Source: a virus
Lineage: Duplodnaviria > Caudoviricetes
Length of the DNA stretch: 64,000 nucleotides
IMG/VR virus record: IMGVR_UViG_3300031992_000038
Location: 32,001 to 96,000 of that record
Direction: 5' to 3' (one strand)
Made by a program: the position numbers and the translations under genes. Of the stretch, positions 12,204 to 22,745 are shown piece after piece (within the stretch, counting starts at the first letter, position 1; each line of letters begins with the position of its first letter). The notes beneath the pieces are model-generated. The model saw only the letters and a program-made list of their open reading frames with translations. It had not been told where the DNA came from and ran no database searches.

Positions 12204-15200
12204 ATGAAAAAATTTGCAAACCTCCAGAAGGAGGTAAAGACTGTCAAATTTGGGCTTAAGCCAATTGGAATGACAGAAAAGTTCATCAAGGATAGAGGTC
12301 TCCTTGACGCGCAGTATTCAATCAACGACAGACTGGAAGAGGCGAAACTGGTCCTTGACCGTGTATATCTCGATGTCCTCAGCCGAAGTATGTCGTCCAT
12401 TGACCCGAAAATCGCTGACGGGTTGTATGACGTGTGGCTGAAAGACCAGAAAAAGTTCACTAACAGCAATGAGTTCAATTCCGCTAAAGATACATTTGTT
12501 GGCAAAATTAAAGGATATATTAGAGAACTAATTAAAACCGAGAAAGAAAATTATGACTTTAATGTCAATAATATCCTAAACGATATAGACACCTTCTGCG
12601 GTGGGGATGATGTCTTAAAGAGCGAACTACACAGCATTAAGAATGACTTTAGCGGACGTTCAGCTTATTTCACGGAATATTGCACCAGCAAAAACCCTGC
12701 ATTGTTCGGAACCGAAACAAATTCTTCCTCATATCGTGTCTTTAATGAGAACCTTGTGACATTCTTCAAGAATGTGAAAGCGTTCCGCTCAATCAGTCCT
12801 GATCAAATGACGACGGTTCTTAAATTTGTTGATGGTCTCGATGAAATCATGGTACCGGATAATGGTTTGAAGTATATTCTGCAATCAGACATTGACGTGT
12901 ATAATAAGGTGATTGCTGAATACGCTTCTGCGCGACAGGAACTCCAAAGCAAGGACAAGGGGTTGAGCCTTCCGAAACTTGAGAAACTCGCGAAGCAGAT
13001 TCTTTCTGAGGCCGAGAAGAAATTCCAGCCAATCGAGAGTGACGAGGAGGTGTTTTCGTTCCTGGACGAGAACATCGAAGACCTTACGTCCGCAATATTG
13101 AAACTGAAAGAGTTGTTCAGTGGGATTGGTTCGATTTATGACAAGGAGAAAATCCTGATTGCAAAGAAGGTGAAGGCTAAAAAGGATGAATTCTCCATGA
13201 TTTCGAACGCCTGCATGCATAGTTGGGACGGAATAAAGAACCTAATCATAGAGAACTGGAAGGCTGAAAATCCTAAGGGTAAGGAAAACGTAAAGGACAA
13301 GAAAGCAAACAAATTCTACAAGCAGTTAAGCAATATTTCATTGCTTGAACTTGAAAAAATCACGAACAGTGATGCGGCAACATCTTATCTGATCGGACTA
13401 GGCGAGAAGAACGACAGAGAACTTCAGGAGGCTGACCTTGCTTCACTCGCCATAAACGCTTACAACGTGTTCAAGGAAGAACACGAGAAGGGTCTTGACA
13501 AGAGACTCAAGAACATTGATAACTCAAAGAACATAAACGCATTCTTTGACACGCTGATTAGACTGAAGGACTTCATCTCCCAGATATATGTCGGAGAGGG
13601 CATAGATGACACCTGCGAGTTCTATCAGGAACTTCTTCCTGCGAAATGCAAACTCGAGGAGGTTGTCAGTGAGTGGGTAAGAATCCGAAGTTACCTCACC
13701 AAGAAGGACTACATTCAGAACGAACTGCGTGTCTATTTCGGATTGAACGCGAATTTGATGGGTGGGTGGACACACAAAGAGAATGGTGAGTTTCCAAAAC
13801 GTTCAATTATGTTCAAGGGTGTCGGGGACGATTATTATGTCGGAATTCTTGCTGGGGTTTCCAGTGCCAAAAAGATTTTAAATGGAGAAATAGGTGACGG
13901 AAGATTCCGATATCTTGACATAACAAATTATGACAAAAAGAATATCGAAAGACTTGTTCAAACTTTTTGTGGTGGCAAGAAACCAGATGAAGATGGCCTT
14001 ATTAAAGTCCTCACAAGCAAAGAATGGGCACAAAAGTACCCAAAGTTAGTTTTGGAGAAAACCGATGGGTTCAGCAGTACAGACGAAATCTATAAATCAC
14101 TTTGCCATCAAGAAATGAGATGGGTTGCATGTTCACGCGAAGCCGTAGACACGATGGTTGAGAGTGGTGATTTGTATCTCTTCAAACTTTCTTGTCGGGA
14201 TTTCAGCAAGCATTCAAAAGGTAATCCACAACTGTACACTATGTACCTGCGTGCGCTGTTAAGTGACGACAATCCGATTGGAAGATATTTCATCAATGGT
14301 AACGGAAAAATCACTTTCAGACCGAGGACAGTTGTCGACAATACAAATATTGGTGATTTCGCCATCCACAGGGCAAATTTCCCCATTGATAACAAGCGGA
14401 ACATTGAAGGCGGTGAGAAAAGTGCCACGTATCCATATGACATTGAGAAGAACAAGCGTTTCAAGTCGGATTCATGGTTCATCAGTTTACCGTTATCCGT
14501 GAACGAAGGCAAGAAAATCACCCAAAAGGAAATCAATGACCTTGTCAACGGCATGATTTCAACCGGTGAGATTAAGCACGTCATCGGTATTGACCGCGGC
14601 GAAAGGAACCTTGTCACCGTATCTATCGTGAACAAGGACACAATGGAAATCGTTGAGCAAAGAAGTCTGAACATCATCGGCAACACAGACTATAACAAAC
14701 TCATGGATGAGATGAGCGAGAACGTTAAGGATGATAGGAACAATTTGCGATTGGAAAGTTCGATGAGAAACATGTCCGAAGGTTATGTCAGCCATGCCGT
14801 GAATGAAATAGTACAACTTGTCAGGAAATACAATGCAGTAATCGCGATGGAAAACCTGGACAATCTTGGGCGCGGTAAAATCATCAAGAACATCTACACG
14901 AAGTTCGAGAACCAGTTATTGGACAAACTGTCGTTCATGGTGTTCAAGGATGTTGACAAGAACGACATTGGTGGCGTATACAATCCGCTCACGATGGCAA
15001 TAAAGAAGACGGACCAAACTAAATATGAAAAAACGTTGTCGCAGAACGGTATTGTTTTTTCGGTATTGCCTCAATACACATCAAGCATCGACCCTGTAAC
15101 TGGTTTTGCGAATGTGCTTGACATGCAGAATGTGAAGACTATTGACTCGATCAAGAAGTTCTTCTACTCATTCGACTATATACGCTATGACAAGGAACAT

Positions 15201-15824
15201 GACCATTTCGTGTTTGGCGCCGACTGGAAGAAATTCAAACTAAAGAACAGTGTAAAGGTGAATGAATTGAACAGGACCGAATGGACACTTGTGTCAAGTG
15301 GAATAAGGATCAGGTACAAAAAGACAAAGAACAGTTCGCACCGAACCATTGAGGAGCATGACCCTACTGAGGAACTCAAGAGAGCCATCGGAAGGTCTGG
15401 AAACAATTTCATGGAATGCGGAAACATCAAGAACATAATCATGAACCAGGACTCACATGACATCCTTGACGAATTCCTTGATGCGGTAAAACTGATTCTG
15501 CAGATGAGAAACAGCAAAGGGGAAGAGGACTACATCCTGTCACCGGCGCTAGACGAAAACGGAAAGCAGTTTGACTCACGTGAGCGTCATGGACAAACAA
15601 TGCCGAAAGACGGTGATACGAATGGCGCTTACAATATCGCAAGACGGGCCGTTATGCTCATCAGGAATGGTGATGACAATAAATATGACAGCAATGTGCA
15701 CTGGTTGAATTTTGCGCAAACCGAAGGAAGAATGCAAACCTTAGGTAATGTGCAAAGTACAAATTTTGACAACGAGTTCAAAACTAATGAGTTATGTTAT
15801 TCCGCATCGAAAAGGGTGGGGTAA
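12204..15824 (+). CDS. cas12a: type V-A CRISPR effector Cas12a (Cpf1), divergent
   Basis: N-terminus KTVKFGLKPIG; RuvC-I IGIDRGERNL, RuvC-II IAMENL, RuvC-III PKDGDTNGAYNIARR; YTSSIDPVTGF, ILQMRNS, DYILSP; directly upstream of a Cas12a-type array. Confidence 0.93.
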   Translation: MKKFANLQKEVKTVKFGLKPIGMTEKFIKDRGLLDAQYSINDRLEEAKLVLDRVYLDVLSRSMSSIDPKIADGLYDVWLKDQKKFTNSNEFNSAKDTFVGKIKGYIRELIKTEKENYDFNVNNILNDIDTFCGGDDVLKSELHSIKNDFSGRSAYFTEYCTSKNPALFGTETNSSSYRVFNENLVTFFKNVKAFRSISPDQMTTVLKFVDGLDEIMVPDNGLKYILQSDIDVYNKVIAEYASARQELQSKDKGLSLPKLEKLAKQILSEAEKKFQPIESDEEVFSFLDENIEDLTSAILKLKELFSGIGSIYDKEKILIAKKVKAKKDEFSMISNACMHSWDGIKNLIIENWKAENPKGKENVKDKKANKFYKQLSNISLLELEKITNSDAATSYLIGLGEKNDRELQEADLASLAINAYNVFKEEHEKGLDKRLKNIDNSKNINAFFDTLIRLKDFISQIYVGEGIDDTCEFYQELLPAKCKLEEVVSEWVRIRSYLTKKDYIQNELRVYFGLNANLMGGWTHKENGEFPKRSIMFKGVGDDYYVGILAGVSSAKKILNGEIGDGRFRYLDITNYDKKNIERLVQTFCGGKKPDEDGLIKVLTSKEWAQKYPKLVLEKTDGFSSTDEIYKSLCHQEMRWVACSREAVDTMVESGDLYLFKLSCRDFSKHSKGNPQLYTMYLRALLSDDNPIGRYFINGNGKITFRPRTVVDNTNIGDFAIHRANFPIDNKRNIEGGEKSATYPYDIEKNKRFKSDSWFISLPLSVNEGKKITQKEINDLVNGMISTGEIKHVIGIDRGERNLVTVSIVNKDTMEIVEQRSLNIIGNTDYNKLMDEMSENVKDDRNNLRLESSMRNMSEGYVSHAVNEIVQLVRKYNAVIAMENLDNLGRGKIIKNIYTKFENQLLDKLSFMVFKDVDKNDIGGVYNPLTMAIKKTDQTKYEKTLSQNGIVFSVLPQYTSSIDPVTGFANVLDMQNVKTIDSIKKFFYSFDYIRYDKEHDHFVFGADWKKFKLKNSVKVNELNRTEWTLVSSGIRIRYKKTKNSSHRTIEEHDPTEELKRAIGRSGNNFMECGNIKNIIMNQDSHDILDEFLDAVKLILQMRNSKGEEDYILSPALDENGKQFDSRERHGQTMPKDGDTNGAYNIARRAVMLIRNGDDNKYDSNVHWLNFAQTEGRMQTLGNVQSTNFDNEFKTNELCYSASKRVG

Positions 15825-15895
15825 ACAACTAAAAAGAAGAAAAGACCAAAGCCGCTCATTTCCAATGGGTTGGATTAAAAACTTGGGCGGATAGG
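15825..15895 (+). promoter_or_regulatory. short CRISPR leader
   Basis: Lies between the cas12a stop and repeat 1; degenerate repeats are at the opposite end; TCCAA-TGGG-TTGGA hairpin. Confidence 0.55.
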
Positions 15896-16597
15896 GTCTA
15901 TCAAAGATAAGAAATACCTACTTGTGTAGGTTTTTATGGACACAATGTCCGACTCTGCGGTCTATCAAAGATAAGAAATACCTACTTGTGTAGGTGGAGT
16001 GGTGCAGACAGATGTCCGATAAAGTCTATCAAAGATAAGAAATACCTACTTGTGTAGGTTATATAAAACCATGAAAAAATGAAGTAGTCTATCAAAGATA
16101 AGAAATACCTACTTGTGTAGGTCTTGATTGAGACGATGTCCGACTCTGCGGTCTATCAAAGATAAGAAATACCTACTTGTGTAGGTTAATCAGTTGGGCG
16201 GAGAAATTAAGCGCGTCTATCAAAGATAAGAAATACCTACTTGTGTAGGTGACATCTCACTTCCATGCTCCTTCAAAGTCTATCAAAGATAAGAAATACC
16301 TACTTGTGTAGGTCGGTTGTCAAACTTGATTCCTGTCTTCGTCTATCAAAGATAAAAAATACCTACTTGTGTAGGTTAAGGAGGGCTTACAGGCTATTGG
16401 GATGGTCTATCAAAGATAAGAAATACCTACTTGTGTAGGTAGGTTATTAGTTATTTTCAGCGTTTTCGTCTATTAAACATAAGAAATATCTACTTGTGTA
16501 GGTATTGGGACTTGACAAACTTACAATTCTTCGTCTATTAAAAATAAGAAATACTTACTTGTGTAGGTACAATTGGACACCAAGTCTATTAAAGATA
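15896..16597 (+). CRISPR. CRISPR array: 11 full 36-nt repeats plus a truncated 12th; 11 spacers
   Basis: Repeat GTCTATCAAAGATAAGAAATACCTACTTGTGTAGGT at 15896, 15960, 16024, 16087, 16151, 16215, 16278, 16341, 16405, 16468, 16533 (last two degenerate), partial at 16584; spacers 27-29 nt, last one 15 nt. Confidence 0.98.
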
Positions 16598-16762
16598 TTA
16601 ATCTGAAATTCATACTTCCTCAAGAAGTAAAAAACTTCTAACTGATTATTTGATATGGAAAACAATAACGGTTGGTCGCTTAACCGGGACGCCTGAAAAG
16701 GCGACACATTGGTGTTAGATGGCAAAACTTGACACAATAATTGGTACAAAACATTAAATAAT

Positions 16763-17146
16763 ATGGACCACACTATTACAATGTACACATGGGAGGTCGT
16801 TCTTTTCCTGTTTCTATACCTCGCGCTTTTCTTCTATGTCATATGGTCAAAGTCAAAAAGACAGTTGAACCCGGACATGTTTGATCGTGAAGGTGAAGTC
16901 AAACCGGTTGTTTTCAAGATAGTGAAGGCGGAAATGTCCGCAACGACGAAGTGTGAGGACGGTCCGCCAGTCCACCGCATGCTATGTAAGTACACCGCGG
17001 TCAACAGTTTTTTCAGAAAGCCGGGACTCAAAGACTACGAGTGCGACTTCTACGTGTTCTACGACGTCGCTGGCAAGTACAATATCGGCGATACGCTCAA
17101 ATTGGACAGTGTGTCGAAGGAATGCGACAATGTTAAACAAAACTAA
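16763..17146 (+). CDS. membrane-anchored hypothetical protein
   Basis: N-terminal hydrophobic helix VVLFLFLYLALFFYVIW. Confidence 0.65.
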   Translation: MDHTITMYTWEVVLFLFLYLALFFYVIWSKSKRQLNPDMFDREGEVKPVVFKIVKAEMSATTKCEDGPPVHRMLCKYTAVNSFFRKPGLKDYECDFYVFYDVAGKYNIGDTLKLDSVSKECDNVKQN

Positions 17147-20879: not shown

Positions 20880-22745
20880 ATGAGCAAACAAGAAGAATAT
20901 CTGAAGTGTTACCAAGACAAGACACGGATATACTTTATAGAACACTACCTGTCCACATACAACGCTGACGACAGGAAGGAGACCCCGTTCATTCTATTCC
21001 CGAGGCAGAAGGAGTTCCTCCGCAGTCTCGCCACCAACCAGAACACGATAGCAATCAAGCACAGGCAGGCCGGAATCACGACAGTGTCAAGCGCCTGGAT
21101 AACCGGACAGTGCGTGTTCGCGAACAAGAAGTCGCCGGAGACAGTGCTGTGCATAGGGAACAGTCTTGACATATCACAGCAGCTGCTTGACAAAATGGGC
21201 ACGTTCATCGACCAAGTCCCGAGGTGGATGTGGGGCGGCGACTATTACTCGCCGGACCCGAACAGCCCGAAGAACTCCAAGTCCATATTCAAGACGAGGA
21301 ACCAGAAGATGATAGAACTCGTCAACGGATGCAAACTGTACGCACGCTCGTCAGGACCGCACGCCGCGCGAGGAATCTCGGCCGTGTCAATACTGATATT
21401 CGACGAGGCGGCGTTCATACAGGACGGTCCTGCGGTCTATGCCCAGGCCGTCGCAGCGCAGTCGTCAGTCGGCGAATCGTCTAGATGCATCATGGTGTCG
21501 ACACCAAACGGCAAGGACCAATTGTACTACAAGACATACGCCAATGCGATCAGCGGCGAGAACAACTACCATCCAGTCGAGTTCAAGTGGTTCCAGGACC
21601 CGAGGTACAACCGCAACCTCAAATGGTACAAGCTAGACAGTTCGACCGGCGAGATGAAGTGGGACATCGACCAAGTGGTGAACCGCCGCGGCGACATCGT
21701 CTATGATGAGGAAAGATGGCGCTCGCTTGAGCGGGACGGATGGACTCCGACTTCTCCGTGGTTTGAGGGGATGTGCAAGACACTCAACAATGACGAAATG
21801 CGCATAGCGCAGGAGCTGCTCGTGTCATTCCTCGGTTCTTCGGACAACGTTCTCCAACCTGAAGTGATTGACTTCCACCGCACGGCAAACGTCGTCGACA
21901 TCACAGACGACTGGCCGCTGCGAGATCCCCTTATAAAGGAGACGTGGATATGGAAAGACCCGGTTCCGTCGCACCGATACATCGTGGCGTGCGACGCGTC
22001 GACCGGTTCGTCCGAGGACCGCACGGCGATAGAAGTGATAGACATAGACGCCAAAGACGACCGCGGCGTTCCTTATTTCGACCAAGTGCTCGAATACTAC
22101 GGGAAAATGACGGGCGACGAGATAGGGGAGATGCTGTACAATTACGGGAGGGCGTACAATGACGCGCTGATCATCGTCGACTGCATCGGAGGGTACGGTG
22201 ACGCCGCGATACTCACGCTCATGAACCTCGGTTACACGAACCTGTACTACGACGAGCCGCAACTGAAGACATATGTGGCAATGAACCAATACTCTCCGTC
22301 CGCGCAGTCAGACACGCTCCCCGGTTTCAGGTCGAACAACCTGCGCATACAGATGCTGAGCAATTTCGTCACACTTCTCAAGACCAACGCGCTCAGAATA
22401 CGCAGCCGCCGCGTGATCACCGAACTCGAGACATGGGTGTGGAAGAACGGGCGTCCGGACCATATGGACGGCGCGCATGACGACAGCATAACGTGCCTGG
22501 CAATGGGCGGCTTCATCATACAGTTCTACCTCATGAAGAACGAGGAGAGCAAAAGACGCGACGCCGCAATCGTGAAGTCGTGGTGCGTCAACAACTCATA
22601 CGAGCGGCGCGAGACGCAGGCCAGCAACGGAACGGCGAACAATCACCCGATGCCGATATATTCGTCGCGCAGCATGGAGATGGACCGCCAGCGGAGGCTG
22701 CAGGCGATGCTCATGATAGGCGGATTCGGCAGGAAAAAGCGTTGA
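20880..22745 (+). CDS. terL: terminase large subunit (T4 gp17-like)
   Basis: KHRQAGITT (Walker A variant), ILIFDEAAF (Walker B), VSTPNG, IAQEL, YIVACD, HDDSI nuclease motif; adjacent to portal. Confidence 0.93.
   Translation: MSKQEEYLKCYQDKTRIYFIEHYLSTYNADDRKETPFILFPRQKEFLRSLATNQNTIAIKHRQAGITTVSSAWITGQCVFANKKSPETVLCIGNSLDISQQLLDKMGTFIDQVPRWMWGGDYYSPDPNSPKNSKSIFKTRNQKMIELVNGCKLYARSSGPHAARGISAVSILIFDEAAFIQDGPAVYAQAVAAQSSVGESSRCIMVSTPNGKDQLYYKTYANAISGENNYHPVEFKWFQDPRYNRNLKWYKLDSSTGEMKWDIDQVVNRRGDIVYDEERWRSLERDGWTPTSPWFEGMCKTLNNDEMRIAQELLVSFLGSSDNVLQPEVIDFHRTANVVDITDDWPLRDPLIKETWIWKDPVPSHRYIVACDASTGSSEDRTAIEVIDIDAKDDRGVPYFDQVLEYYGKMTGDEIGEMLYNYGRAYNDALIIVDCIGGYGDAAILTLMNLGYTNLYYDEPQLKTYVAMNQYSPSAQSDTLPGFRSNNLRIQMLSNFVTLLKTNALRIRSRRVITELETWVWKNGRPDHMDGAHDDSITCLAMGGFIIQFYLMKNEESKRRDAAIVKSWCVNNSYERRETQASNGTANNHPMPIYSSRSMEMDRQRRLQAMLMIGGFGRKKR

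Follow-up and report, generated by a model that had tools for sequence, protein, structure and literature searches.

Two spacers of a phage-borne Cas12a array match two alleles of one silently recoded integrase site in a temperate siphophage

The CRISPR array of a huge-phage fragment with a stand-alone cas12a gene contains two spacers, spacers 1 and 4, that match two alleles of a single site in the serine integrase gene of a temperate siphophage. On the sequence evidence, it is probable that the two spacers represent independent acquisitions from two alleles of this site, and that Cas12a selects for change there. The alleles differ by a dense patch of silent substitutions over the protospacer and its PAM, and a third lineage of the target phage has lost the site by deletion. 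Sequences, matches, PAMs, patch statistics and the deletion allele were read directly from the DNA.

The window, i.e. the whole stretch of 64,000 nucleotides that was analysed, comprises bases 32001-96000 of a 115,873-bp IMG/VR virus record (IMGVR_UViG_3300031992_000038), whose CheckV completeness of ~32% indicates a fragment of a huge phage. The features discussed here are collected in Table 1. The protein encoded next to the array has Pfam matches above cut-off to RuvC_1 (7e-52), NUC (6e-37) and REC1 (2e-10) of Cas12a, and in phmmer searches it matches the solved Cas12a structures (Lb2, Lb, Fn and As) at E values of 1e-103 to 1e-74. The REC lobe, the tripartite RuvC and the Nuc domain of a type V-A effector are present in a single large protein, and by its domains, repeat and PAM the effector is a predicted member of type V-A. 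It shares with LbCas12a, Lb2Cas12a, FnCas12a and AsCas12a the domain set, the size, a 36-nt repeat with a 3' hairpin and a 5' T-rich PAM. Unlike in those type V-A systems, no adaptation module lies nearby, the repeat stem begins with a C-G rather than a U-A pair, and one of the cognate targets is preceded by TCTC. The cas4-cas1-cas2 genes that accompany the effector in complete type V-A loci are absent from the 115.9-kb record, in which no match to PF01867, PF09827 or PF01930 was found for cas1, cas2 or cas4 at E<=1 and which represents ~32% of the genome. A search of IMG/VR gave no further record with the array repeat and no close relative of the Cas12a, and the isolated phages in GenBank include no close relative of the huge phage or of the 25-kb target phage.

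Table 1. Positions in the window of the features discussed, with the protospacer matches of the spacers (L numbers denote contigs)
Feature	Position	Strand	Remarks
cas12a, stand-alone type V-A effector (predicted)	12204..15824	+	1206 aa; Pfam and phmmer
Putative leader	15825..15895	+	71 nt separating the end of cas12a from the first repeat; near-identical in two sister loci
CRISPR array	15896..16568	+	11 repeats of 36 nt, 10 spacers of 27-29 nt
Spacer 1, leader-proximal	15932..15959	+	integrase allele A, 27/28, mismatch at position 25, PAM TTTC; L003, L009, L010, L022
Spacer 3	16060..16086	+	same 25-kb phage, RBS/start of the major head gene, 26/27, PAM TTTA
Spacer 4	16123..16150	+	integrase allele B, 27/28, mismatch at position 19, upstream TCTC; L011-L018
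Spacer 5	16187..16214	+	related 33.6-kb viral contig L023, 27/28, PAM TTTA
Array end	16569..16605	+	15-nt stub, then a truncated, degenerate 12th repeat
T4-type large terminase	20880-22745		

Substitutions are present in repeats 8, 10 and 11 of the array, and the commonest spacer length is 28 nt (5 of 10 spacers). The 3' hairpin of the repeat, CCUAC-UUGU-GUAGG, is predicted to fold with a 6-bp stem and adjoins the 5' end of each spacer. In the sister locus L021 the stem covaries to CCUGC/GCAGG by a compensatory exchange of A-U for G-C, and both the window repeat and the sister repeat have the type V-A form of ~36 nt with the 3' hairpin directly 5' of the spacer. From this placement of the hairpin it follows that the crRNA has the sequence of the + strand and that each spacer has its PAM-proximal end on the 5' side. 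The 71-nt stretch in front of the first repeat is almost unchanged in two sister loci, whose Cas12a proteins are 88% and 85% identical to that of the window and whose spacers are different. Since this stretch is kept in the sisters and the mutated repeats stand at the far end of the array, the leader is placed on the cas12a side; spacer 1 is probably the newest spacer. The sister arrays (L021:4612-4701 and L020:4143-4215) retain the leader, are very short and carry other spacers, and the array of L020 ends in the same manner as that of the window, with a stub of 19 nt.

In a 330-kb contig with an identical Cas12a (SRR9006729), cas12a is separated from the following gene by 448 nt, compared with 939 nt here (window 15825-16763); the difference of ~490 nt implies an array that is about 7-8 units shorter, or a collapsed assembly. 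These loci are relevant to the origin of the spacers. The array might record the immune history of a host, in which case a bacterial type V-A system would have acquired the spacers and the array or parts of it would have moved into the phage by recombination. The lack of cas1, cas2 and cas4 in the 115.9 kb is in line with such a transfer, as is the observation that huge-phage arrays often resemble host arrays (PMC7162821). However, the sister phage loci keep the leader and differ in their spacers, and the gap in the contig with identical Cas12a is shorter, which argues that arrays turn over while they reside in phage genomes. The 115.9 kb, moreover, cover only 32% of the phage genome. A host origin, which concerns only the acquirer and is compatible with either reading of the recoded patch described below, is considered somewhat doubtful.

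Spacers 1 and 4 have equal length and boundaries and are identical at 23 of 28 bases. The sequence-only reading of this DNA had stated that they differ only at positions 1, 4, 7, 10 and 13, that both reverse complements translate to AESDIVSIK and that the five differences are PAM-proximal, and all of this was confirmed, including the coordinates: AESDIVSIK is the frame that the natural target gene really uses, and a Cas12a-type hairpin lies directly 5' of each spacer. The chance of an identity of at least 23 of 28 bases in any of the 45 spacer pairs is ~1.6e-8, and the chance that all five differences share one codon phase is ~1.2%. The last 15 nt are identical between the two spacers, and these shared 15 nt are absent elsewhere in the window and in the 115.9-kb record. 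Two outcomes had been named as fatal to the idea of one protospacer with two variants, namely that the spacers map to unrelated loci or that only one variant exists in nature. Neither outcome was observed: the two spacers point to a single site in one gene, and each variant has a natural counterpart.

The identical boundaries and the common 3' 15 nt could also point to a spacer that was duplicated within the array and then changed, either by recombining, independently of Cas1, with target DNA that had escaped or through point mutations, and such a route would suit a 115.9-kb record in which adaptation genes were not found. Five point mutations that are all silent and reproduce a natural allele are, however, not credible, and the homology for recombination would be one-sided and 15 nt long, with the repeat unrelated to the PAM flank. 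Moreover, the two copies are separated by spacers 2 and 3, nothing indicates a tandem duplication, and the identical boundaries are explained by a common PAM together with the commonest spacer length. Duplication followed by change is therefore regarded as extremely improbable. Recombinational updating of a spacer without Cas1, one of two routes proposed in the sequence-only reading, is not supported, as both spacers persist and PAM-side homology that could drive the exchange is lacking; the other, repeated acquisition at one PAM, fits the data.

The target of spacers 1 and 4 is the antisense strand of nt 99-126, coding for AESDIVSIK, in the gene of a 539-aa large serine integrase. Its domains PF00239, PF07508 and PF13408 (Resolvase, Recombinase and zinc-ribbon), together with its location on a phage contig, identify it as a large serine recombinase of the phage integrase type, and it matches PHROG 95 (integrase) at 1e-53. 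AESDIVSIK is only moderately conserved among homologues, and the description of the target as a conserved gene had been too strong. Allele A was found by a degenerate scan for all codings of AESDIVSIK, which yielded a single true protospacer, on a contig that is present in both IMG/VR and ENA. Five further back-translation matches on genome and metagenome contigs (L004-L008) were dismissed as chance hits in unrelated or non-coding sequence. Allele B is a second 539-aa member of the integrase 90% cluster, found on seven Logan contigs, with the representative on an eighth, from eight runs; all eight contigs match spacer 4 at 27 of 28 positions and have TCTC at the place of the PAM. A search for shorter integrase fragments gave no more alleles of the site. 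Self-targeting was rejected, as the phage record contains no integrase homologue and has no similarity to the target phage apart from the spacer.

The integrase is carried by a temperate siphophage of ~25 kb, represented by three assemblies of 24.9-25.0 kb with genes for head, protease, tape-measure and tail proteins, TerS/TerL, portal and integrase. Spacer 3 is directed against the same phage and spacer 5 against a related contig, which shares 73-84% identity with the 25-kb phage in their common region, and at least 4 of the 10 spacers match this one temperate siphophage family. Between them, the runs SRR873599, SRR9006729, SRR30832672, SRR28623936 and the SRR29188xxx series contain the huge phage and the 25-kb phage. 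For spacers 2, 6 and 7, IMG/VR contains no sequence with an exact match of 22 nt. The T-rich PAM of the TTTV type was read at three of the four recovered protospacers, TTTC for spacer 1 and TTTA for spacers 3 and 5, in each case from sequence only. The TCTC of allele B is non-canonical and may be either an escape change or the mark of an allele that was never efficiently targeted. The target phage family also encodes repeat-rich proteins (phrog_35892 / phrog_18805; L023:388-1566 and L003:12820-14312) that give many cross-matches at 70-84% nucleotide identity between these two contigs. Among the Logan contigs of lineages B and C, six independent ones (L012-L016 and L019) end at one and the same base, their position 1, 237 nt upstream of the integrase start, and the allele A assemblies continue past this base into tail genes. 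The shared end suggests a branch in the assembly graph, possibly attP or a prophage junction ~340 bp from the protospacer.

Alleles A and B of the integrase gene differ at 66 of 1620 nt (96% identity), with 53 of the differences at third codon positions, and the two proteins are identical at 528 of 539 residues (98%; 11 differ). Ten silent third-position differences are gathered in a patch of 37 nt (nt 102-138; sites 102, 108, 114, 117, 120, 123, 126, 129, 132 and 138), in which 10 of 13 consecutive codons differ, and the alleles are identical over the adjoining 80 nt of one flank and 40 nt of the opposite one. The patch spans the protospacer, PAM position -3 and two sites just past it (within 8 nt); the change from A to B at PAM position -3 is GAA to GAG in the gene and hence TTTC to TCTC on the spacer strand. 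When the 53 third-position differences were placed randomly, 10 of them never fell within 37 nt in 100,000 trials (p<1e-5), and the hypergeometric p for the window of the patch is 8e-9. After removal of the five differences that are implied by the spacers, 5 of the 8 remaining codons are still different, where the background is 8% (p=1.6e-4). Protospacer and PAM thus show the excess of substitutions over the flanks that is expected as a signature of escape. A DGR-type mechanism was rejected, because the ten changes mix transitions and transversions, from and to all bases.

The patch is the densest cluster of differences in the 5.2-kb alignment of A and B, with the exception of a non-homologous intergenic block. 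This block lies upstream of a gene for a 464-aa protein (L012:5222-5382 compared with L009:6290-6450), and the A/B relationship is mosaic there. Other short tracts in the alignment comprise clusters of 7-8 differences in 40 nt, with 8 in 40 nt at two places, and such mosaic tracts show that a patch of this kind can arise without CRISPR. Accordingly, two co-circulating alleles might have been sampled at an acquisition hot spot, the site being taken twice through a strong preference of adaptation (PAM and Cas4-type preferences, or local DNA ends), with the patch as an ordinary recombination tract from a diverged relative and no causal link between the two. Independent re-acquisition of one protospacer is known from laboratory adaptation (PMC5071653), and the fully replaced intergenic block and the clusters of 7-8 differences attest to mosaicism elsewhere. 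On the other hand, the borders of the patch agree with those of protospacer and PAM within a few bases, no patch in coding sequence is denser, the extra changes of the living alleles fall inside the same 32 nt, PAM included, the deletion allele takes out the same site, and the hot spot itself is an assumption. Sampling of unselected alleles at a hot spot is judged unlikely, and selection by Cas12a on a site acquired twice is preferred. The sequence-only reading had portrayed the pair as the record of an arms race with a competitor that recoded its gene. This portrayal is borne out as far as the silent patch over protospacer and PAM is concerned, and the competitor is a temperate siphophage and the gene its serine integrase, whereas Cas12a as the cause of the recoding and the order of events belong to the interpretation given further below.

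The codon usage of the patch provides a clue to the polarity of the change. In allele B the patch consists of codons that the gene prefers (ATC, AAG, GAG; GC3 75%), in allele A of rare codons (ATA, TCC, AAA, GAA) that are 4.1-4.5 log-likelihood units less likely under the codon usage of the gene. This fits with A as the derived allele and spacer 1 as the newer spacer, a polarity with B older that rests on codon usage and on assumed insertion at the leader end; the outgroup integrase P0002, at 64% protein identity, is too distant for the changes to be polarised. The living allele A departs from the shared part of the spacers at position 25 and the living allele B at position 19 and also at PAM position -3, and four alleles of one 32-nt site can therefore be distinguished, two preserved as spacers and two living. 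Given the common 3' half of the spacers and one further change in each living allele, spacers 1 and 4 look like older alleles, intermediate between the living ones. A 12-nt sequence of the B-type patch, CGTCTCAATCAA (the reverse complement of spacer 4 positions 2-13), recurs in frame in the same gene of both alleles, at integrase nt 936-947 (L012:1173-1184 and L003:1096-1107), where it codes for VSIN. This second copy may have served as a donor for ectopic conversion, or it may be coincidental, owing to the preferred codons.

A third lineage, C, is represented by a contig (L019:238-783, Logan SRR28623936) that is 93-96% identical to B. Its integrase gene carries an in-frame deletion of 1074 nt, which leaves a remnant of 181 aa and removes protospacer and PAM. 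The deletion lies between two 10-nt copies of GGCAGAGCGT, at gene nt 81-90 and 1155-1164. The 10-nt microhomology is shorter than the k-mer of the assembler, which we take to be 31 for the Logan contig, and an assembly artefact is thus unlikely. Cas12a cuts at the PAM-distal end of the protospacer, and the left edge of the deletion is 8 nt from this end, a closeness with p~0.07 in a single contig. An integrase is not needed for lytic growth. On non-essential regions of lambda, Cas12a selects microhomology deletions of this kind (PMC10132644).

The following course is our inference as regards whether Cas12a is active, what caused the patch, in which order events took place and who made the acquisitions. 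The huge phage would express Cas12a and crRNAs while infecting, and Cas12a would cut the DNA of resident or co-infecting siphophages at the integrase and head genes. It is probable that the targeted siphophages reside in the same host as prophages or enter it as co-infecting competitors, and cutting would remove the competitor. Against the other allele, each crRNA is mismatched at six positions, five of which fall within the PAM-proximal positions 1-13. With these mismatches, each allele would need a spacer of its own, and by established Cas12a seed rules cross-targeting of both alleles by one spacer is unlikely. Removal of competitors has been proposed for huge-phage CRISPR systems in general (PMC7162821). 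Cas12a tolerates single mismatches and escape from it needs several changes (PMC10132644), and because the site is coding, changes would pile up at silent third positions. They would arise stepwise, a route that the tolerance of single mismatches makes possible, or by import of a short recombination tract. The PAM change to TCTC in allele B and the deletion allele without the site would be further outcomes.

The array would have met a B-type allele first and an A-type allele later, as spacer 4 is leader-distal and spacer 1 leader-proximal, and this order of meeting is the most likely one. Among ~408 TTTV sites, the same site would be taken twice by chance in ~0.7-1.5% of cases, so that some bias must act. 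The bias might stem from a hot spot of uptake, from selection for sites that are effective, or from a link between uptake and interference, and the uptake itself could proceed by host machinery in trans, by exchange with host arrays, or by genes in the missing two thirds of the genome. That re-acquisition at the same PAM reflects an interference-linked ('priming-like') or site-directed uptake without Cas1, Cas2 and Cas4 of the phage's own appears improbable.

Andersson and Banfield 2008 and studies of S. thermophilus phages reportedly describe target change at the scale of a spacer length, short recombination blocks and arrays that record successive variants. The present case resembles them in the localised change of the target and in the successive variants in the array, but theirs are host arrays with their own adaptation genes. 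To our knowledge, an array with two spacers for a single PAM site, of which both alleles could be recovered, is a tidier case than those usually reported. CRISPR systems directed against other phages, with Cas1, Cas2 and Cas4 missing, have been described from huge phages, in which the lack of the adaptation module is usual (Al-Shayeb et al. 2020, PMC7162821). The system described here shares with them the phage-borne effector, the compact array and the missing Cas1/Cas2/Cas4, and differs in its Cas12a, in the allelic spacer pair for one site and in the recovery of the target alleles. As in the escape of lambda from Cas12a (Schelling et al. 2023, PMC10132644), several mutations, PAM-distal ones included, and microhomology deletions are observed; unlike there, the population is natural, the change is far denser (10 silent changes in 37 nt) and the CRISPR system is carried by another phage. 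The type I-F system of Vibrio phage ICP1 reportedly acts against PLE (Seed et al. 2013, cited in PMC7162821), and is likewise a phage CRISPR system directed against a rival integrative element in the host, but it is a complete class 1 system with adaptation genes, in contrast to the lone class 2 effector found here.

The components of this example are all known, namely phage-borne CRISPR against phages, change concentrated at protospacers, and escape from Cas12a by multiple mutations and deletion. New is the instance: an allelic spacer pair in one array, both living alleles together with a deletion allele, and an unusually dense and sharply bounded silent recoding. It represents a compact natural example of what is usually seen only in laboratory evolution, comprising four successive protospacer alleles, a PAM change, a microhomology deletion allele and dense silent recoding, the last of which agrees with the prediction from the mismatch tolerance of Cas12a. 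A huge phage that aims at least 4 of its 10 spacers at one temperate phage family, including the integrase and head genes, provides direct sequence evidence of CRISPR conflict of phage against phage. The finding also raises the question of how an array without adaptation genes samples one site twice. If directed re-acquisition were true, a huge phage could renew its record of a rival at a site of choice, either through host machinery acting in trans or by some other route.
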